Shown: positions 42,469-61,970 of the stretch, in pieces
Numbering within the stretch: position 1 is the first letter of the stretch
How the letters are laid out: every line of letters begins with the position of its first letter
Source of the DNA: Escherichia coli
GTDB lineage: Bacteria > Pseudomonadota > Gammaproteobacteria > Enterobacterales > Enterobacteriaceae
DNA: 64,000 nucleotides
Assembly (NCBI RefSeq): GCF_024298765.1
Contig: NZ_CP101210.1
Reading direction: 5' to 3' (one strand)
The notes under the pieces: model-generated
Seen by the model: the letters and a program-made list of their open reading frames with translations, nothing else
The model's database searches: none
Told to the model about the DNA's origin: nothing
Made by a program: the position numbers and the translations under genes

Positions 42469-42654
42469 ATGTCACCCTGTGAAAATGACACCCCTATAAA
42501 CTGGAAACGAAACCTGATCGTCGCCTGGCTAGGCTGTTTTCTTACCGGTGCCGCCTTCAGCCTGGTAATGCCCTTCTTACCCCTCTACGTTGAGCAGCTT
42601 GGCGTTACCGGCCACTCCGCCCTGAATATGTGGTCCGGTATTGTCTTCAGTATA
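42469..42654 (+). pseudogene. mdtG: mdtG 5' fragment (codons 1-62), truncated by the insertion
   Basis: [62 protein letters not shown], then out-of-context MGP-stop; the rest of the MFS protein resumes at ~46958. Confidence 0.85.
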
Positions 42655-42689
42655 ATGGGTCCCTAAACACATCATTTTAGGTATTGAAT

Positions 42690-44219
42690 ATGAGACGGGC
42701 AATCAGCTACATCAGATTTTCAAGTGAACGACAACTAAAAGGGGACTCTGTACGCAGACAATCTAAGCTGGTCACTGACTGGCTTGATAAGAACCCTGAG
42801 TTTTACTTGGATTCATCCTTGAGCTTTAAAGATTTGGGGAAAAGTGCTTTTAGTGGTAAGCACTTGAAAGGTGGCTTAGGTGACTTTTTAACCGCTATCG
42901 AGAAAGGGCTTGTTAAAGCTGGTGATACACTACTAATCGAGAGTTTAGACCGTCTCTCACGTCAGGATATTGATATTGCTTCTGAGCTATTACGTCGTAT
43001 CTTAAGGGCTGGTGTAGATATAGTCACACTGAGCGATGGTGAACATTACACACGAGAAAGTTTAAAAGACCCGTTATCCCTGATTAAAAGCATTCTGATA
43101 ATGCAGCGGGCGCATGAGGAAAGTCTGAGGAAGTCTGAGCGTGTCCAAGCTGCATGGAACCGTAAAAAAGAACTCATCTCCGAAGGTATCAAGGTATCTA
43201 GGCGTTGTCCTGCATGGTTAAGGCTGAATGATGACCGTCGAACATTCACTATCATCCCCGATAAAGTGGAAGTTGTTAAACGAGCATTTGACCTGAGATT
43301 ACAGGGTTTAAGCTTTTGGGCTATCACCAGAACTTTAAACGATGAAGGCCACTTGTCATTGAATCAATACACACCTAAACAAAAGGGATGGTCTGATACT
43401 GCTGTAAAGAAACTACTCAGAAATCGTGCTGTGATTGGATGTTTCACACCTGCTGGACGTGAAGAAGTTCAGGGTTACTACCCCGCAATAATCAGTGAGT
43501 CACTATTCTATCGAGTACAGCAACTGAACACAGGGCAATATGGTAGGGCTTCTGTATCAAGTAATCCGCTATCAGTCAACTTGTTCAGGGGTATCATCAA
43601 ATGTTCTGAGTGTGGGGCTACTATTGTTCTTGGTGGATATGCCTTAAAACGTTTTGGGATGTACAGATGCCCTAATCGTTCAGCTAACAGGTGTAGTGCA
43701 AAGGCTATCAGTCGTAAGCAAACGGATACAACTATCCTTTACATGCTCGCATTATGCGACCGTTTTGAAACTGAAAATACTGACACTATTGATAGCCTTA
43801 AATTACAGCGTGAAGATTTGCAGCGTAAAATCTCAAAAATGGCAGAACTCGCTATTGAACTCGATGACATGACAATTATCACAGAGAAATTACGTGATAT
43901 GAAGAATGCGCTATCAAAACTCAATCATGATATCGAAGAGGAAACAAAGCGGATAAAGGCCATCACAACTGGAAGCCTCAAAGATATTGACAGGACAACA
44001 AAGGAAGGGATGATAGAGACACAGCTACTTATCAAGGGCGTACTCAAAGAAATAGTTATAGATGCCGCTAAACGTCGCTGTAAAGTGACTTTTCACAACG
44101 GTAAGGTAATTGACCTACCTATAACAGAAAACCCCTCAGAGGACGTTACAGAGGCCATACAGTCGCTTTCTGAAGTCACTGAGAGGGGTTTAATAGATGT
44201 TGATGTAGTAGCGATTTAG
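42690..44219 (+). CDS. large serine recombinase (integrase)
   Basis: 509 aa from ATG 42690 (track begins 6 nt earlier at TTG): N-terminal resolvase domain with catalytic YIRFSSERQ, recombinase domain, Cys-rich zinc ribbon CSECG...CPNRSANRC, C-terminal coiled coil. Confidence 0.88.
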   Translation: MRRAISYIRFSSERQLKGDSVRRQSKLVTDWLDKNPEFYLDSSLSFKDLGKSAFSGKHLKGGLGDFLTAIEKGLVKAGDTLLIESLDRLSRQDIDIASELLRRILRAGVDIVTLSDGEHYTRESLKDPLSLIKSILIMQRAHEESLRKSERVQAAWNRKKELISEGIKVSRRCPAWLRLNDDRRTFTIIPDKVEVVKRAFDLRLQGLSFWAITRTLNDEGHLSLNQYTPKQKGWSDTAVKKLLRNRAVIGCFTPAGREEVQGYYPAIISESLFYRVQQLNTGQYGRASVSSNPLSVNLFRGIIKCSECGATIVLGGYALKRFGMYRCPNRSANRCSAKAISRKQTDTTILYMLALCDRFETENTDTIDSLKLQREDLQRKISKMAELAIELDDMTIITEKLRDMKNALSKLNHDIEEETKRIKAITTGSLKDIDRTTKEGMIETQLLIKGVLKEIVIDAAKRRCKVTFHNGKVIDLPITENPSEDVTEAIQSLSEVTERGLIDVDVVAI

Positions 44220-45380
44220 TATCTCTTATTAGGATTCACTGAGTACTTTTTAAGCTTTGAAGCTACCCGACCAGCGTTACTGTTAGCATTGGTGAGGTTG
44301 GTTTTTTCAGCTTCTTCACAAAAAAGCTTCAGAGGTCTTCTTAACCATCCGCTAAGCAGGAGAGAGGGTGGTACATGAGAAAGAACCCTCACTTCTAAAA
44401 AGATTTTTTAGCTATTTTGCTTAAAACCATATCAAAAGATACATTTTATTGATTCAGGTCAAAGACAAAAGCATTGACAAAATGGTAAAATTGTTCACAT
44501 GACCTTACTTAACAGACTTTTTAAGAGCTTTTGAGAAGCTTGTTGAACAGACACTCTTTCTGGAGTGTTGTCTTTTACTTAAGAGGTTTGTTTAGATAAC
44601 TCTCAAGGCATCTCTTAAGAATCACTGTTAAGGTGATACTCTCCCTTCGGGTTATATCGTATCTCTTCTCCCGTTAGACAGTTTTTCCTAGCAACTTCAT
44701 AGTTATCTGTCAAGTGCCTTTGAAGATTCCATCAAGACCTCTGAATCTGACCTGATATAGATGCTGTGAAGGCATATTCTCTAGGTCTGTGTAGCTTACT
44801 TAGTGGGAAGAGAGGGATATAGTGACCATAGGGGAACCCCTCCTGTTAAAAAGACTACTTAGAAGTCTGAGACTTTAGTAAAATCTGTGAATATAGCTTC
44901 TCAGACGCTCTGTAACGCATTCTAAGCGATTTTACCACCTTATTTTAAGGTGGGTGGTACATCCCTATAGGTTACCCTAAAAATGGGGTTAAAACTCGCT
45001 ACAGAGCTTTCTATGAGGCTTGGTAGAGTTGCATAAATTTTACACAACACTTATTCAGCTTCTAAATTTTTTTATAAAAAATCGTAGTAACCCCTCTACA
45101 TTCCCCTTCACCGATAATCTTCAAAAATATCTATCACAGGTCTATACCTGCTAAGTACCCGTCACTACGCCTAAGTGGTCCCCTTTGCAAAATTTTAAAA
45201 TATCTATTGACTTTTTATGTGAACTGTTATAAAGACCGCTCCATCTCTTAGGCATACCGTTATAGCATACTAAAAAGGTATAGCTAACCCCCTGTAAAAA
45301 CCATACCGATTAGCCTTGTAAAACACTTTATCGGTACATTATACTCAACTCATCAAATGAGTAAGGCAAATGAGTATATT

Positions 45381-45926
45381 ATGGCTAACATTGGTTATAT
45401 CCGAGTTTCATCAATCCAGCAGATTACAGACCGTCAACTTGAAGGGGTCGTACTGGATAAGATATTTACTGATAAAGCATCTGGGAAGAATACAGACCGT
45501 CCACAACTAAAGGCTATGCTCGATTATGTTCGTGAAGGTGATGTTATCCATGTACACGACTTGTCACGTTTAGGGCGCTCTACCGTGGATGTATTAACGC
45601 TGGTGGATAAACTTTCACAGAAAGGTATCAAGGTTCACTTTCACAAAGAAGGTCTGATAACTGGTGACGATAACCCCACGTCTAAGATGATTCTCACAAT
45701 CTTTTCAGCAGTGGCTGAAGCTGAACGTAAAATGATGCTTGAGCGTCAACGAGAAGGCTATGAAGCTGCTAAAGCTGCTGGTCGTGTAGTTGGAAGGGGT
45801 AACGGTAAAGCGGTTGACAGAGAAGGTATTAAAGCTGCTCTTGCTGCTGGTGGTTCAATCGCTAAAGTAGCCGCTCAATTCAACGTTGCCAAGTCAACTG
45901 TACAGCGTATTAAAGCTGAAGATTAA
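45381..45926 (+). CDS. small serine recombinase, resolvase/invertase family
   Basis: ~181 aa from MANIGYIRVSS (catalytic Ser), IFTDKASG, LSRLGRS, SAVAEAERK, C-terminal HTH; the track ORF starts 8 codons earlier at 45357. Confidence 0.85.
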   Translation: MANIGYIRVSSIQQITDRQLEGVVLDKIFTDKASGKNTDRPQLKAMLDYVREGDVIHVHDLSRLGRSTVDVLTLVDKLSQKGIKVHFHKEGLITGDDNPTSKMILTIFSAVAEAERKMMLERQREGYEAAKAAGRVVGRGNGKAVDREGIKAALAAGGSIAKVAAQFNVAKSTVQRIKAED

Positions 45927-45939
45927 GTCAGGAAATACA

Positions 45940-46623
45940 TTAGATTTTTCTTCCAAATAAACTTGGGAGATTCTTACGGTTTCTTGCTTGCATCATTATT
46001 TCTGGGCTAACAAGTTTTTTTAATTCGCTTCTGTACTCATCAATAGAACACTCATCCGCAACAAGTTTTGAAATCAGGTCTTCAATAGACATAACATCTT
46101 GTTGCAGGAAATCAAGTTCACGAGACAAGTGCTTTTTTTGATTCTCTAACTTTCCTATCTCAGCATTTAAGTTATCTACATCTGTCGCCAATTTCTCTGC
46201 CTGAGATTTCAAATTACTTGTATCTTCTTTTTCTCTTTCGATAAGGTTTTTTTGTTTCTCAATCTTCAACTTTGACGTCAGTCTAGCTGACTCTTCAAGA
46301 TTTTCAGCTTCTACTTTTTGTCTTGCTCGCCATGCGGTTGCCTTGATTTGAAGTAGTGTTACAAGGTTGCTGAAGTAAGGGAAAAAGGTCGCCAAAATGA
46401 ACCCTAGCCCTACGGGATAGCATAATGTTTTTAGATAGAAGTCTTCCGTCGATGTGATTTGTTGAATACGAGTAACAACCGAAGCCTCACTAAGACACAT
46501 GATAGCAATGCTTTTCCAGTTAAATCCCACCCATGACAAAATGATGTAGCCCCATAAAGGGTTAGCTACTCGTTCCTTCAACGCCTGCTTAACTGATTCC
46601 GTGATACTTTCTTCACTACTCAC
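45940..46623 (-). CDS. hypothetical membrane-anchored coiled-coil protein (227 aa)
   Basis: Two N-terminal hydrophobic helices (PLWGYIILSWVGFNW..., VGLGFILATFFPYFSNLVTLL), then ~120 aa of charged heptad-like sequence; no family recognised. Confidence 0.65.
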   Translation of the reverse strand: MSSEESITESVKQALKERVANPLWGYIILSWVGFNWKSIAIMCLSEASVVTRIQQITSTEDFYLKTLCYPVGLGFILATFFPYFSNLVTLLQIKATAWRARQKVEAENLEESARLTSKLKIEKQKNLIEREKEDTSNLKSQAEKLATDVDNLNAEIGKLENQKKHLSRELDFLQQDVMSIEDLISKLVADECSIDEYRSELKKLVSPEIMMQARNRKNLPSLFGRKI

Positions 46624-46957
46624 AATTACTGCTCCATAGAAAACTCTGGTTTGAGAAATTTTAATGCGAATCCAATCAGTTAGATAGACCTGTAAATAGC
46701 AATTTTATAGAAGTCGAGAGAGGGATGACTAACACCCTGCATAGTTTCCTGAAAAGAGACTTCGCATATTATCTATATATTTCAATAAGTTATGCTAAAA
46801 AGGAACTATACCAATACTGCATAGATTCTGCGTAAAACTGCTTGGATACTTGGAAATCCACCATTAAATTGCATAGTCATTCACCTGATAAAGCCTGTTA
46901 TTAACAGGTGATAGGATTCGGATGTTCTCATAGTGTATTTAGGGAATTAATATCAGC

Positions 46958-48001
46958 ATTACATTTTTATTTTCGGCCATCGCCTCACCGTTTTGGGGTG
47001 GACTCGCCGACCGTAAAGGCCGAAAACTCATGCTATTACGCTCTGCCCTCGGCATGGGCATCGTGATGGTGTTGATGGGACTGGCACAAAATATCTGGCA
47101 GTTTTTGATCCTGCGGGCGCTTCTTGGGTTACTTGGCGGATTTGTCCCCAACGCTAATGCTCTTATCGCCACACAAGTACCGCGTAATAAAAGCGGCTGG
47201 GCGCTGGGTACGCTCTCCACAGGCGGCGTTAGTGGTGCGTTGCTCGGCCCAATGGCTGGCGGCCTGCTCGCCGATAGCTACGGCTTACGTCCGGTATTCT
47301 TTATTACCGCCAGTGTGCTCATACTCTGCTTTTTCGTCACCCTGTTCTGCATCAGAGAAAAATTCCAGCCGGTCAGCAAAAAAGAGATGCTGCACATGCG
47401 GGAAGTGGTGACATCACTTAAAAACCCGAAACTGGTACTCAGCCTGTTTGTCACCACGTTAATCATCCAGGTGGCGACAGGCTCAATTGCCCCCATTCTG
47501 ACGCTGTATGTCCGCGAACTGGCGGGTAACGTCAGTAACGTCGCCTTTATCAGTGGCATGATCGCCTCGGTGCCAGGCGTGGCGGCTCTGCTAAGCGCAC
47601 CACGACTCGGCAAACTTGGCGATCGAATCGGACCCGAAAAGATCCTGATTACAGCGCTGATCTTTTCTGTACTGCTGTTGATCCCAATGTCTTACGTTCA
47701 GACGCCATTGCAACTTGGGATTTTACGTTTTTTGCTCGGTGCCGCCGATGGTGCACTACTCCCCGCCGTACAGACACTGTTGGTTTACAACTCGAGCAAC
47801 CAGATCGCCGGGCGTATCTTCAGCTATAACCAATCGTTTCGTGATATTGGCAACGTTACCGGACCATTGATGGGAGCAGCGATTTCAGCGAACTACGGTT
47901 TCAGAGCGGTATTTCTCGTCACCGCTGGCGTCGTGTTATTCAACGCAGTCTATTCATGGAACAGTCTACGTCGTCGTCGAATACCCCAGGTATCGAACTG
48001 A
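46958..48001 (+). pseudogene. mdtG: mdtG 3' fragment (codons ~63-408), separated from its start
   Basis: Frame resumes ...[35 protein letters not shown]... to the native stop; the track shows only the internal-Met ORF 47030-48001. Confidence 0.85.
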
Positions 48002-48885: not shown

Positions 48886-53040
<4,155 letters not shown>

Positions 53041-56538: not shown

Positions 56539-56966
<428 letters not shown>

Positions 56967-56969
56967 TAG

Positions 56970-57303
<334 letters not shown>

Positions 57304-57361
57304 ATTCTTCTCCCGAAAAAAAACAGGGCTTGCGCCCTGTTTCTTTAATACAGATGATGTA

Positions 57362-57820
57362 TTAGTACTGATGAGCGGTCGCGTTGTTACCAAAGCCAAC
57401 CTGAGTCACGTTGACGGAGGAGTTAGATGCAGTCTGATCAACTGCAGCACCGTTGCCACCACCGAACTGTTTAACAGTCATTTCAGAATTTTTGCCGTTC
57501 CACTGATCAAGAGTGGCGCTGTTACCGAAGCCACGTTGGGTCAGATCGATTGAGCTGTCATCTGAGCCCTGACCAACATCTGCACCATTACCACCGCCAT
57601 GTTGGGTAATAGTCAAGTCAGAGTTACGGGCATCAGCTTGCAGAGCAAGTGCAGAGTTACCGCCACCGTACTGGTAAATGTTCAGCTCTGAATTTGGGCC
57701 GCTATTATTACCGCCACCACCGTGGTTGCCGCCACCGCCGCCGTACTGAGGAACAACACCTGCCAGAGCGCTACCGGAGAATACGATTGCTGCAATTGCT
57801 GCTACTTTTAAAAGTTTCAT
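57362..57820 (-). CDS. csgA: major curlin subunit
   Basis: 152 aa with signal peptide and five imperfect S-x5-Q-x-G-x-G-N-x-A repeats. Confidence 0.95.
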   Translation of the reverse strand: MKLLKVAAIAAIVFSGSALAGVVPQYGGGGGNHGGGGNNSGPNSELNIYQYGGGNSALALQADARNSDLTITQHGGGNGADVGQGSDDSSIDLTQRGFGNSATLDQWNGKNSEMTVKQFGGGNGAAVDQTASNSSVNVTQVGFGNNATAHQY

Positions 57821-57860
57821 GTAAAACCCCCATCGGATTGATTTAAAAGTCGAATGGAAA

Positions 57861-58316
57861 TTAACGTTGTGTCACGCGAATAGCCATTTGCGACTGTCTC
57901 TGCACTACAATTGCCGTTTTTTGAGTACCATACTGTGTAATATTTGCTTTATTACCCGAACCTTTCTGGATAATCATCGCAGTATTACCATAAGCACCTT
58001 GCGAAATACTGGCATCGTTGGCACTGCCCGCCTGATCAATATATGCAAGGTTATAATCTCCTGTCTGGTCAATCTTTGCCCGGTTGCTACTACCTTCTTG
58101 CGCAACAACCGCCAAAAGTTTTGAGCCTCCCTGCCGTAACTGAGCACTATTATTAGTCCCAGCTTGACCAATTATGGCTGCCTGATTAAATGAAGACTTA
58201 CTCAATTCATTTACCGCGAAGTTATATTCTGAATTAGCTAAATCATAACCTGCTGCGGCTGCAATCCCAGGCGCACCCAGTATTGTTAACATCATAAATA
58301 ACAATTTGTTTTTCAT
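57861..58316 (-). CDS. csgB: minor curlin/nucleator
   Basis: 151 aa from MKNKLLFMMLTILGAPGIAAA; track ORF trimmed. Confidence 0.93.
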   Translation of the reverse strand: MKNKLLFMMLTILGAPGIAAAAGYDLANSEYNFAVNELSKSSFNQAAIIGQAGTNNSAQLRQGGSKLLAVVAQEGSSNRAKIDQTGDYNLAYIDQAGSANDASISQGAYGNTAMIIQKGSGNKANITQYGTQKTAIVVQRQSQMAIRVTQR

Positions 58317-59069
58317 GTTGTCACCCTGGACCTGGTCGTACATTTAAGAAATTAAATCATTTCAACTTGGTTGTTAACGCAACCTGTATTTTGTTAACGC
58401 TGCGTTACGATGGAAAGTATGTCTGCGGAAATATTTTTAATAACTCACCCGCGCGTTGTATTTTTCTTTTTTTGTTCATACCAAAGTATTAAAACTCACG
58501 TAAATACGCTGTTATCTACGCAAAAAATATTTTGTTTTCTTTTAAATCTCCGTTTTCCGCTATCAAAAATCACCAGACAATCATTCTTCTTGCCCGTCGC
58601 TGATTGCTGCGATATGTCTTGCGCACAAGCCGTGACAAACCTCGTCTTTTTGCAGTAAAAAATTGTCCACGGAGGTGTGGAGAAAAAACAAGAACGTTTT
58701 ACATGACGAAAGGACTACACCGAAATATTTTTTATATGCATTATTAGTAAGTTAGCACCATTTGTATGATTTTTTAAAATTGTGCAATAAAAACCAAATG
58801 TACAACTTTTCTATCATTTCTAAACTTAATAAAACCTTAAGATTAACATTTTAATATAACGAGTTACATTTAGTTACATGTTTAACACTTGATTTAAGAT
58901 TTGTAATGGCTAGATTGAAATCAGATGTAATCCATTAGTTTTATATTTTACCCATTTAGGGCTGATTTATTACTACACACAGCAGTGCAACATCTGTCAG
59001 TACTTCTGGTGCTTCTATTTTAGAGGCAGCTGTCAGGTGTGCGATCAATAAAAAAAGCGGGGTTTCATC
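58317..59069. promoter_or_regulatory. csgB-csgD divergent intergenic regulatory region
   Basis: ~750-bp AT-rich ORF-poor spacer between the divergent csgBAC and csgDEFG operons; a known regulatory hub for curli expression. Confidence 0.8.
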
Positions 59070-59720
<651 letters not shown>

Positions 59721-59724
59721 AGCC

Positions 59725-60114
59725 ATGAAACGTTATTTACGCTGGATTGTGGCGGCAGAATTTCTGTTCGCCGCAGGGAATCTTCACGCCGTTGAGGTAG
59801 AAGTCCCGGGATTGTTAACTGACCATACTGTTTCATCTATTGGCCATGATTTTTACCGAGCCTTTAGTGATAAATGGGAAAGTGACTATACGGGTAACTT
59901 AACGATTAATGAAAGGCCCAGTGCACGATGGGGAAGCTGGATCACAATAACGGTGAATCAGGACGTTATTTTCCAGACTTTTTTATTTCCGTTGAAAAGA
60001 GACTTCGAGAAAACTGTCGTCTTTGCACTGATTCAAACTGAAGAAGCACTAAATCGTCGCCAGATAAACCAAGCGTTATTAAGTACGGGCGATTTGGCGC
60101 ATGATGAATTTTAA
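59725..60114 (+). CDS. csgE: curli secretion specificity factor
   Basis: 129 aa. Confidence 0.93.
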
Positions 60115-60138
60115 ATAATAAATTGTTCGGAGGCTGCA

Positions 60139-60555
60139 ATGCGTGTCAAACATGCAGTAGTTCTACTCATGCTTATTTCGCCATTAAGTTGGGCTGGAAC
60201 CATGACTTTCCAGTTCCGTAATCCAAACTTTGGTGGTAACCCAAATAATGGCGCTTTTTTGTTAAATAGCGCTCAGGCCCAAAACTCTTATAAAGATCCG
60301 AGCTATAACGATGACTTTGGTATTGAAACGCCCTCGGCGTTAGATAACTTTACTCAGGCCATCCAGTCACAAATTTTGGGTGGGCTACTGTCGAATATTA
60401 ATACCGGTAAACCGGGCCGCATGGTGACCAACGATTATATTGTTGATATTGCTAACCGCGATGGTCAATTGCAGTTGAACGTGACAGATCGTAAAACCGG
60501 ACAAACCTCGACCATCCAGGTTTCGGGTTTACAAAATAACTCAACCGATTTTTAA
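60139..60555 (+). CDS. csgF: curli assembly protein
   Basis: 138 aa. Confidence 0.93.
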
Positions 60556-60581
60556 GCCCCAGCTTCATAAGGAAAATAATC

Positions 60582-61415
60582 ATGCAGCGCTTATTTCTTT
60601 TGGTTGCCGTCATGTTACTGAGCGGATGCTTAACCGCCCCGCCTAAAGAAGCCGCCAGACCGACATTAATGCCTCGTGCTCAGAGCTACAAAGATTTGAC
60701 CCATCTGCCAGCGCCGACGGGTAAGATCTTTGTTTCGGTATACAACATTCAGGACGAAACCGGGCAATTTAAACCCTACCCGGCAAGTAACTTCTCCACT
60801 GCTGTTCCGCAAAGCGCCACGGCAATGCTGGTCACGGCATTGAAAGATTCTCGCTGGTTTATACCGCTGGAGCGCCAAGGCTTACAAAACCTGCTTAACG
60901 AGCGCAAGATTATTCGTGCGGCACAAGAAAACGGCACGGTTGCCATTAATAACCGAATCCCGCTGCAATCTTTAACGGCGGCAAATATCATGGTTGAAGG
61001 TTCAATTATCGGTTATGAAAGCAACGTTAAATCGGGCGGGGTTGGGGCAAGATATTTTGGGATCGGTGCAGACACGCAATACCAGCTTGATCAGATTGCC
61101 GTGAACCTGCGCGTCGTCAATGTGAGTACCGGCGAGATCCTCTCCTCGGTGAACACCAGTAAGACGATACTTTCCTATGAAGTTCAGGCGGGGGTCTTCC
61201 GCTTTATTGACTACCAGCGCTTGCTGGAAGGGGAAGTAGGTTACACCTCGAACGAACCCGTTATGCTGTGCCTGATGTCGGCTATCGAAACAGGCGTCAT
61301 TTTCCTGATTAATGATGGTATCGACCGCGGTCTTTGGGATTTGCAAAATAAAGCAGAACGGCAGAATGACATTCTGGTGAAATACCGCCATATGTCGGTT
61401 CCACCGGAATCCTGA
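60582..61415 (+). CDS. csgG: curli secretion channel lipoprotein
   Basis: 277 aa with lipobox LLSGC. Confidence 0.95.
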   Translation: MQRLFLLVAVMLLSGCLTAPPKEAARPTLMPRAQSYKDLTHLPAPTGKIFVSVYNIQDETGQFKPYPASNFSTAVPQSATAMLVTALKDSRWFIPLERQGLQNLLNERKIIRAAQENGTVAINNRIPLQSLTAANIMVEGSIIGYESNVKSGGVGARYFGIGADTQYQLDQIAVNLRVVNVSTGEILSSVNTSKTILSYEVQAGVFRFIDYQRLLEGEVGYTSNEPVMLCLMSAIETGVIFLINDGIDRGLWDLQNKAERQNDILVKYRHMSVPPES

Positions 61416-61434
61416 TAGATAAAAATGCCGGAAT

Positions 61435-61461
61435 TATCATCCGGCATTTTACTGTTTAAGC
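61435..61461 (+). terminator. csgG Rho-independent terminator
   Basis: ATGCCGGA-attatca-TCCGGCAT followed by TTTT; a second hairpin AGCGTGAG...CTCACGCT follows. Confidence 0.7.
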
Positions 61462-61478
61462 GAAAGCGTGAGTGCCCC

Positions 61479-61970
61479 TCACGCTTTATTTTTGATTTGC
61501 TGCTCACGGTGAGCGGTCTTCGTACTACGCGCCGCCAGCCACAAGCCGCTGTTTTTCATTGCGTAACCAAATATCAACCCGAGCGCCAGCGAAGGTAACA
61601 CCAGTTTCCAGTCACCCTGCCCGGCAAACGTCGCGCATGCGCCTATAAACGTTCCCGGAACAAATGAAAGCAGCAGCTGTTTGGCCTGAATACACATCAG
61701 AAACGCGACAATACCGGTTATGACATAACCGAGAATTTCCAGATGTGGTGCCAGTGCACTACCGTAAATAATGACCATCGCCCACACCACGCCACTAAGC
61801 AGGGTTGCAGCGGAGATCGCCAGCCCTTTCAGCCCACCTTGCGGGCAGGCAAAGTAGGCCGTACAGCCCAGGAAGCCCGCCCAGCTTAGTAAGCCCAGGG
61901 AAACAGCCACCCATCCCCAGATACCGGAGAGAATGCCTGTTGTGATTGCAATAGAGAGAAGTATGTTCAT
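61479..61970 (-). CDS. ycdZ: inner membrane protein YcdZ (DUF1097)
   Basis: 163 aa from MNILLSIAITTGILSGIWGW; track ORF trimmed. Confidence 0.82.
   Translation of the reverse strand: MNILLSIAITTGILSGIWGWVAVSLGLLSWAGFLGCTAYFACPQGGLKGLAISAATLLSGVVWAMVIIYGSALAPHLEILGYVITGIVAFLMCIQAKQLLLSFVPGTFIGACATFAGQGDWKLVLPSLALGLIFGYAMKNSGLWLAARSTKTAHREQQIKNKA

Follow-up and report, generated by a model that had tools for sequence, protein, structure and literature searches.

The stretch of DNA described here, a window of 64,000 nucleotides (nt) from the Escherichia coli contig NZ_CP101210.1 (RefSeq assembly GCF_024298765.1), contains a 4.3-kb insert within mdtG, the gene for the efflux pump MdtG. According to the list of open reading frames (ORFs) and the sequence itself, codons 1-62 of mdtG lie at 42469-42654 and the remainder starts at 46958. 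The left junction (attL) reads ...GTCTTCAGTAT followed by AATGGG, and the right junction (attR) reads ...ATATCAGCAT followed by TACATTT. An AT dinucleotide is present at both, and the AT at 42653-42654 is the probable crossover dinucleotide. Rejoining the flanks as ...CAGTAT-TACATT... restores the unbroken empty site seen in 5393 of 5426 complete E. coli genomes. The guanine-plus-cytosine (GC) fraction is 0.35-0.45 within the insert, compared to about 0.5-0.55 outside it. A preliminary description of this DNA had placed the split of mdtG exactly at codon 62, and the junctions and the empty sites bear this out.

With an integrase of about 500 amino acids (aa), a precise insertion, a common central dinucleotide, and an empty site elsewhere, the insert has the features of a large serine recombinase (LSR) integrative element. 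It had been described at the outset as a compact site-specific element holding an intact LSR, a resolvase-like small serine recombinase, and a convergent 227-aa coiled-coil protein with two transmembrane segments, and as carrying no structural, replication, or conjugation genes. The features collected in Table 1 agree with this for the window copy, and the 227-aa protein stays unassigned. The LSR has an alternative TTG start at 42684, its N-terminus reads YIRFSSERQ, and its NCBIfam matches (XisF/Ccr) are sub-threshold; a related LSR in the sequence labelled L171 bears the Pfam domains Resolvase, Recombinase, and Zn_ribbon_recom.

Table 1. Features of the mdtG insert in window coordinates (q, coordinate in the ORF-free query region, equal to the window coordinate minus 44219; L numbers, compared sequences)
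Feature	Position	Strand	Evidence or remark
attL junction and 35-nt left arm before the LSR start	42650-42689	+	mdtG ...CAGTAT, then AATGGGTCC...
LSR (integrase), 509 aa, intact	42690-44219	+	phrog_95 integrase, E=3.7e-80 over residues 1-475
Stub of deleted tube-initiator (Dit-like) gene	44216-44314	-	last 32 codons and stop codon
Module A	44306-44401 (q87-182)		right-hand deletion junction; overlap of about 10 nt with the stub; blastn to L005 13725-13783, L087 12001-12088, and others
Module B, conserved core	44394-44860 (q175-640)	+	23 distinct copies aligned; invariant islands
Module C	44864-45025 (q644-806)	+	cassette of about 160 nt; blastn 70-72%
Module D	45049-45234 (q830-1015)	+	nearly universal in the family, by alignments
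Small-recombinase leader, candidate res/operator region	45235-45380	+	allele-specific; ATACCG/CGGTAC repeats at about 45254, 45303, and 45332
Small serine recombinase (resolvase/invertase type), 181 aa, intact	45381-45926	+	phrog_125, E=1e-57, full length
227-aa accessory protein	45940-46623	-	two N-terminal hydrophobic segments (by eye), C-terminal coiled coil; convergent
Conserved right-end block	46679-46909		common to elements with differing LSRs; three TGCATAG repeats
Right attP arm, LSR-specific, and attR junction	46910-46959	+	...ATATCAGCAT, then TACATTTTT, then mdtG again

The larger element and the origin of the insert

The insert is, with a probability of roughly three in four, an internally deleted relic of a larger family of integrative elements of the Enterobacteriaceae. 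Strain A1 carries an 11.6-kb element at the same mdtG site, and the two LSRs are 98.6% identical. Sub-segments of the insert have matches in hundreds of genomes. In A1, the LSR gene is followed by opposite-strand genes for a “baseplate” protein, a tape measure, and small proteins; an adenine methyltransferase gene comes next, and the small recombinase gene after it. Full-length members of the family (about 11-12 kb) begin with the LSR and an opposite-strand operon of about nine genes, which are followed by a conserved non-coding region of 0.8-2 kb, the small serine recombinase, cargo in some members, and the conserved right end. The operon ends in the tape measure and tube-initiator genes, which derive from Felixounavirus-type virulent myoviruses, and holds about seven further small genes; one small gene of the full-length members encodes an HNH endonuclease.

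What remains of the tube-initiator gene in the window copy is a stub that is identical at 31 of 32 aa to residues 231-262 of the A1 tube-initiator protein and matches L002 13566-13661 at 97% nt identity. Because only these last codons remain, about 7 kb has been lost. The deletion spans the stretch between tube-initiator codon 230 and the start of the non-coding region; the LSR and both att arms survive, as do modules A-D, the small recombinase, and the 227-aa cargo gene. At tonB/yciI there is a second compact copy (L086; the same element is found in the metagenome contig L157). Past its LSR, only about 41 nt are left, its right-hand junction is a different one, and its homologue of the 227-aa gene is split. 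Since its deletion end points differ from those of the window copy, it is an independent deletion. The reverse history, in which the 4.3-kb form is ancestral and the large forms were made by insertion, is argued against by the stub and by the two differing deletion junctions.

The preliminary description had seen in the integrase, the RNA or site region, the second recombinase, and the membrane effector the parts of a purpose-built system. The comparison does not support that claim: because A1 shares the LSR and the site, the stub persists, and the tonB/yciI copy was deleted differently, the four-part layout is better understood as the leftover of the 7-kb loss. The same architecture recurs at five or more chromosomal sites (mdtG, tonB/yciI, wrbA/ymdF, yecE, and dinB/lafU) and in Citrobacter too. 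The check that had been proposed, a search for genomes with an intact mdtG and for the element at other loci, has turned up the empty site and related elements elsewhere. Of the refuting outcome that the earlier description had named, half has come about: the insert is a decayed copy of a larger element, but this larger element was not found described in the literature searched.

Family members excise precisely to a circle. For example, the metagenome contig L094 (ERZ506742 NODE-633; 11,233 nt) has a 55-nt terminal overlap and about 15x assembly coverage, and its right end runs straight into its LSR end, at precisely the attR/attL breakpoints that the wrbA copy L005 shows, giving an attP junction of …GTAAAAGCAC followed by TAGTATTCTTGCC…. 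It is a precisely excised 11,178-bp circle of the wrbA-type element. In L092, the small-recombinase end likewise runs directly into an LSR gene, with no host DNA between them.

The right ends of the elements show where integration modules are exchanged. The conserved right-end block is 77-84% identical (blastn) to L002, L005, L086, and L088 and ends at the palindrome CCTGTTATTAACAGG (46894-46908), past which the aligned right ends diverge according to LSR type. Downstream of this palindrome, the LSR gene and the right attP arm are swapped as one integration module (L002, L005, L086-L089, L092-L149). The LSRs at different sites are mostly just 28-38% identical, and the mdtG-type LSR pairs with all three small-recombinase alleles. 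An Rfam match to the eukaryotic RNA NRON at 46828-46953, over the right att arm, is spurious (E=0.06, 17.9 bits against a gathering score of 50 bits).

The entire 4.3-kb element sits at mdtG in just 6-8 of the 5426 complete E. coli genomes, and near-identical compact mdtG copies come from chicken, pig, dog, and human strains. Several compact mdtG copies contain insertion sequences (ISs; ISEc52 and IS100), and so does a wrbA element (L005 16226-16930), with IS26 among the ISs of this set; the IS-bearing mdtG and wrbA copies are consistent with ongoing decay. The window copy is probably crippled and, having lost the structural and early genes, is most likely a relic, at best still able to excise.

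Some further observations concern the full-length relatives and the surroundings. In strain 02E060 (L004 1-4400 and 5019-15575), the tail genes of a lambdoid prophage (gpJ, lom, and a tail fibre gene) are immediate neighbours of a full-length element in the wrbA-ymdF region. Direct repeats of about 75-90 nt (81-86% identity) lie just upstream of the tape measure and tube-initiator genes (L005 7283-7356 and 9544-9616; L003 2797-2884 and 5037-5123) and may be duplicated promoter or leader sequences. Judging by its translations, a second low-GC patch of the window (56900-61500, about 0.40 at 58-60 kb) is no island but the usual curli locus, csgBAC and csgDEFG, whose intergenic region is AT-rich.

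Felixounavirus sequences in the parent family

Felixounavirus is a genus of virulent phages widely used for Salmonella typing, biocontrol, and therapy. The 262-aa tube-initiator protein of the family, whose precomputed Pfam family is Dit_like, matches PDB entry 9ndy_A, “Tube initiator protein (gp018)” (Bas63 gp18), at E=3.4e-115. Homologues with roughly 76% aa identity are known from about 250 Felixounavirus genomes. At the DNA level, the gene is 92-93% identical to that of phage adrianh over 509-543 bp in three different elements (the first 520 bp or so, encoding the N-terminal two thirds), which indicates recent exchange of DNA with a virulent phage. The gene stands directly after the tape measure gene in adrianh, as in the elements, and the order in Bas63 is likewise gp17, the tape measure, then gp18, the tube initiator (PMC12609058). 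The likeness to this tail module is limited in that the 722-aa tape measure protein of the elements aligns with the Felixounavirus protein end to end at only about 30% identity and that tblastx against the entire 88-kb Felixounavirus genome matches only the tape measure and tube-initiator genes; in the window, of course, the pair has shrunk to the stub.

The resemblance extends to non-coding DNA. Between convergent gene blocks, adrianh has a 1.7-kb gene-free region (L170 4153-5855, equal to MN850614.1 49153-50855) in which the motif TGTTAR occurs 31 times, mostly on one strand, where 3.3 copies are expected; it may be an origin, a terminus, or a protein-binding array, and papers that treat the genome ends of Felixounaviruses provide no coordinates for them. 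Module D of the insert matches adrianh 50170-50356 (blastn/nhmmer), and its 25-nt box CCCCTTTGCAAAATTTTAAAATATC (45180-45204) is common to the adrianh region at about 50185-50210. Variable inserts of other elements match other phage intergenic regions.

The family shows the general pattern of a satellite, keeping an integrase and regulatory functions while the full set of virion and replication genes is missing. It most resembles a PLE-type phage satellite in that it integrates by an LSR, is small and uniform in gene order, exchanges its integration modules, excises precisely, and has structural genes and intergenic sequences that come from a virulent myovirus. The parent family may be a satellite of Felixounaviruses, for which we see something close to, though a little under, an even chance. 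A fuller version of this idea seems slightly less likely. In it, the elements would form an undescribed satellite family of E. coli and Citrobacter that brings its own tape measure and tube initiator for takeover or sabotage of tails, with a non-coding locus that mimics the helper’s and serves as a phage-responsive control, replication, or packaging locus, and the window copy would be its relic.

Known satellites provide a measure for this reading. Both PLE and the present family are small chromosomal islands integrated by an LSR and tied to a virulent myovirus rather than to a temperate phage; both are without capsid or terminase genes of their own, and both excise to a circle. PLE is about 18 kb long; the family, at about 11 kb, is shorter, and it has a tape measure and tube-initiator pair of its own, as well as the small serine recombinase and the long stretch of conserved non-coding DNA. 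Annotation searches of the family with PHROGs, Pfam, and NCBIfam, made without aligning it directly to PLE, recognised none of the PLE marker genes. P4-like satellites, PICIs, and cf-PICIs, too, live in Enterobacteria, integrate into the chromosome, and have variable cargo slots able to hold antiviral genes. They use tyrosine integrases and temperate helpers, and their hallmarks are alpA, a primase-replicase, sid/psu/delta, and terS or capsid modules. In the present family, both recombinases are of the serine type, and the PHROGs and NCBIfam scans gave none of these hallmark annotations.

PICMIs, minimalist satellites of virulent phages, are similar in their reduced gene content and dependence on a virulent helper, and the 4.3-kb window copy is of similar size; they belong to Vibrionaceae and have no capsid-remodelling genes (PMC10803314). 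The compact window copy differs from them in being demonstrably a deletion product.

The non-coding segment and the small recombinase

Between 44220 and 45356, the insert has no ORF of 60 aa or more, the longest being 58 aa (minus strand) and 44 aa. The preliminary description was right about this 1.1-kb segment for the most part, except that its first 96 nt (44220-44315) are the stub of the deleted gene. Judged by its sequence, the segment beyond the stub is conserved non-coding DNA, not gene debris. Homologues are present in 541 of the 5426 genomes (median 2 copies), almost never with an annotated gene beneath the match, and are absent from the phage and plasmid collections searched. Variable columns are spread evenly over the codon positions (96/100/103, p=0.88), whereas recombinase-gene controls show clear periodicity (p=1.5e-7 and 4.6e-18), and the longest stop-free stretch in eight copies is 46-74 codons. 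The region also takes cargo genes in relatives, namely a Dam-type adenine methyltransferase, an “AP2/ERF family” DNA-binding protein, and a helix-turn-helix (HTH) protein (L088 11251-11919; L089 11324-11986; L002 21444-22106; and others), and because of these it can be regarded as a second variable slot.

Module B contains a promoter-like site with an extended -10 element, AAGACA-18-TGgTAAAAT (44462-44491, from a promoter scan), and an invariant inverted pair, CTTAACAG (44509-44516) and CTGTTAAG (44625-44632). Its hairpin H1 (44543-44595) scores z=-2.4 in the window; for the L086 variant, whose inner stem has another sequence, the value is z=-4.1. Two haplotype blocks of differing sequence fold a long hairpin at this same position. 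In an alternative fold of the window type, a terminator-like hairpin (44550-44569) is followed by TTTT, and a UUCG-capped hairpin lies at about 44633-44662. Module C has an inverted copy upstream of the 109-aa gene in full-length relatives. In module D, a promoter-like sequence, TTGACT (45207-45212)-N15-TGtTATAAA (45225-45233), faces the small recombinase.

These features suggest that the ORF-free core (44394-45025) could act as an RNA, either a small RNA or an attenuator transcribed from the 44462-44491 promoter, with H1 competing with the terminator. In its favor are the extended -10 site with a terminator-like hairpin and four U residues about 60-80 nt downstream, the possibility of two mutually exclusive folds, and the long hairpin kept in one place by two variants in which several pairs are changed on both sides. 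Moreover, H1 is more stable on the plus strand (-17 kcal/mol) than on the complement (-9.5 kcal/mol), and the UUCG-capped hairpin recurs with three different stem sequences. However, the global RNAalifold consensus is nearly nil (-6.2 and -4.0 kcal/mol), and independent compensatory events are few because the variation consists of two or three recombining haplotype blocks. The UUCG hairpin is no better than shuffled sequences (z=-0.6) and folds better on the opposite strand, and the stems are made of a recurring CTGTTAA/TTAACAG motif that would equally fit a DNA-binding protein. Rfam has no real match in the element, in full-length relatives (L005), or in the phage non-coding region. Since the global consensus is weak and Rfam is blank, a functional RNA is ranked as a rival rather than a finding, and it seems unlikely, though a serious contender.

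Two other candidates in this region were set aside. Pairing of 44524-44551 with module C at 44884-44911 as antisense (28 nt, 75% complementary) shows, by eye, no co-variation between haplotypes. Mimicry of phage iterons is not borne out, as TGTTAR occurs three times in the window’s ORF-free region where 1.9 copies are expected and is therefore little enriched. A YTGTTAAG pair (2 against 0.12 expected) and the clustering in the element of 7 of 22 CTGTTAW sites are suggestive only. The element holds a few invariant copies of the phage-type TGTTAR motif, one of them the palindrome at the right end.

The small-recombinase slot beside this region is always filled, by at least three alleles that are 30-36% identical and freely combined with LSR types. 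The window allele is 98% identical to the copies in L003 and L005 and 30-36% identical to the other alleles of the slot. It has an alternative ATG at 45357. Its best NCBIfam match is the Mpi invertase model, below the cut-off; Pfam Resolvase is found on its homologues, and the small recombinase has the C-terminal HTH expected of its class. A scan of the genome collection with this protein found mainly generic resolvases that are not related to it.

Directly after the module D promoter, the alignment turns allele-specific. Two other alleles have inverted motifs of their own directly upstream, TGTCTATA/TATAGACA four to five times in one and GTCTCAAAAG/CTTTTGAGAC about six times in the other, including one 12-2-12 palindrome, and this layout would be of the res/resolvase type or that of an autoregulated multimer-resolution cassette. 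The window allele has, by eye, only three weak ATACCG-type repeats. A small serine recombinase with a C-terminal HTH and short inverted repeats directly upstream resembles the res-resolvase systems of Tn3/gamma-delta and plasmid multimer-resolution cassettes, and one site of the L087 allele has two 12-nt arms around a 2-nt center. The family differs from Tn3/gamma-delta in that the element has no transposase, the candidate sites are read from repeats alone, which are weak in the window allele, and the best model match, below its cut-off, is an invertase. For a switch of the Hin/Gin type, no convincing long-range inverted repeat was found flanking the small-recombinase gene or the ORF-free region. 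A reversed recombinase gene in L087 had suggested such an invertible switch; that gene, however, belongs to another allele (35% identity), and neither orientation shows any similarity in DNA.

The 227-aa protein belongs to a small family of the Enterobacteriaceae. It matches PHROGs of unknown function at 1e-16, and its Pfam and PDB matches are coiled-coil noise only. In PADLOC-DB v2, neither recombinase has a match, and the 227-aa protein has only weak coiled-coil ones (best 2.4e-5, to LmuB/JetC segments). In full-length elements of Citrobacter and E. coli, a 64%-identical homologue adjoins the small recombinase, and the elements in L002, L005, and L088 are without the gene. It is accessory cargo in a variable slot, and a role in exclusion or defence is plausible from its position.

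Competing explanations and what the family may mean

The compact form could instead be a working minimal satellite, a hitcher for which the LSR, the non-coding cis region, and the resolvase suffice, with the rest supplied in trans by a helper phage or a full-length sibling. Two independent deletions leave the same retained set, the window ORFs and both att arms are all intact, and near-identical copies occur in strains of varied hosts; complementation in trans is conceivable because carriers usually hold at least two family copies. The stub, however, speaks of loss rather than design. The tonB/yciI copy has a split 227-aa homologue, and several mdtG copies carry IS insertions. The compact element is also rare compared to the non-coding region of the family, and no circular or attP form of it was found among the contigs examined. 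Taken together, a working minimal element seems improbable. The original proposal, in which the 227-aa protein would be the effector and the ORF-free segment the RNA or site component of a self-sufficient system for defence, exclusion, or regulation, is less probable again, to the point of being very doubtful. It draws on the place of the 227-aa gene in a variable slot beside attR, the kind of place in which other satellites keep antiviral genes (Rousset et al. 2022, PMC9122126). The gene travels with the same recombinase allele in GB089 (95.6% nt identity), and the nearest families of its protein are phage-borne and of unknown function. Against the proposal, the protein has no real PADLOC or Pfam match, and one LSR pairs with three recombinase alleles. 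Because elements that lack the 227-aa gene keep the non-coding region and the small recombinase, and because LSRs and alleles are mixed, the four parts are not a co-inherited unit.

The parent family itself might not be a satellite at all, but an eroded temperate relative of Felixounaviruses or an island that interferes with tails by means of a decoy tape measure and tube initiator. Just two phage-derived genes are recognised in it, and interference with tail assembly is documented as a defence strategy (PMC11364771). Random prophage decay would hardly leave intact ORFs in one uniform order over about 11-12 kb, repeated in both E. coli and Citrobacter and at five or more sites, and excised circular forms exist and integration modules are swapped between elements. 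This explanation is about as improbable as that of a working minimal hitcher, with the qualification that one and the same element could be both a satellite and a defence island working by decoys.

Several observations weigh against a deleted satellite of Felixounaviruses as the explanation of the insert. PHROGs, Pfam, and NCBIfam recognised no replication initiator, terminase subunit, or capsid-modifying gene in the family, and the core proteins of 236, 184, and 109 aa, among others, have no Pfam, NCBIfam, or PDB match other than coiled-coil or chance ones and no informative one in PHROGs. Induction, replication, and packaging of members by Felixounaviruses are predictions made from sequence. 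The res-like repeats are weak for the window’s recombinase allele. All three ORFs of the window copy are intact, and because of this and of the near-identical copies in strains of varied hosts, the window copy may not be inert. The literature searched held neither a Felixounavirus satellite nor an island combining an LSR with a tape measure gene; the family is apparently undescribed, although it may still have been described elsewhere.

If the insert is the relic of a Felixounavirus satellite, its history and the life of its parent could have run as follows. The LSR would have put the ancestor into mdtG at codon 62, at the AT crossover, inactivating mdtG. The parent element would stay integrated until the phage-like promoter and control sequences of its non-coding region switch it on, whereupon it would excise. 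The tape measure and tube initiator that it supplies could then commandeer or poison the tail assembly of the helper. The small recombinase and the allele-specific repeats just upstream of it may form a multimer-resolution (res/resolvase) cassette for the circular form, and the 227-aa gene, an accessory in the variable cargo slot next to attR, could have a part in exclusion or defence.

On its own, the compact 4.3-kb copy is of little weight, being a probably decaying insertion that costs a few strains their MdtG efflux pump. The non-coding core, on the other hand, marks a family of mobile elements that about 10% of complete E. coli genomes carry. Testable handles on this family are its conserved non-coding region and its small recombinase, which is always there yet highly divergent. 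Should the members prove to be satellites or defence islands that target tails, Felixounaviruses would have their first known partners of this kind, and, as satellites, the members would be just the second LSR-borne lineage of a virulent myovirus after PLE. In that case, they could also explain differences between strains in their susceptibility to Felixounaviruses.

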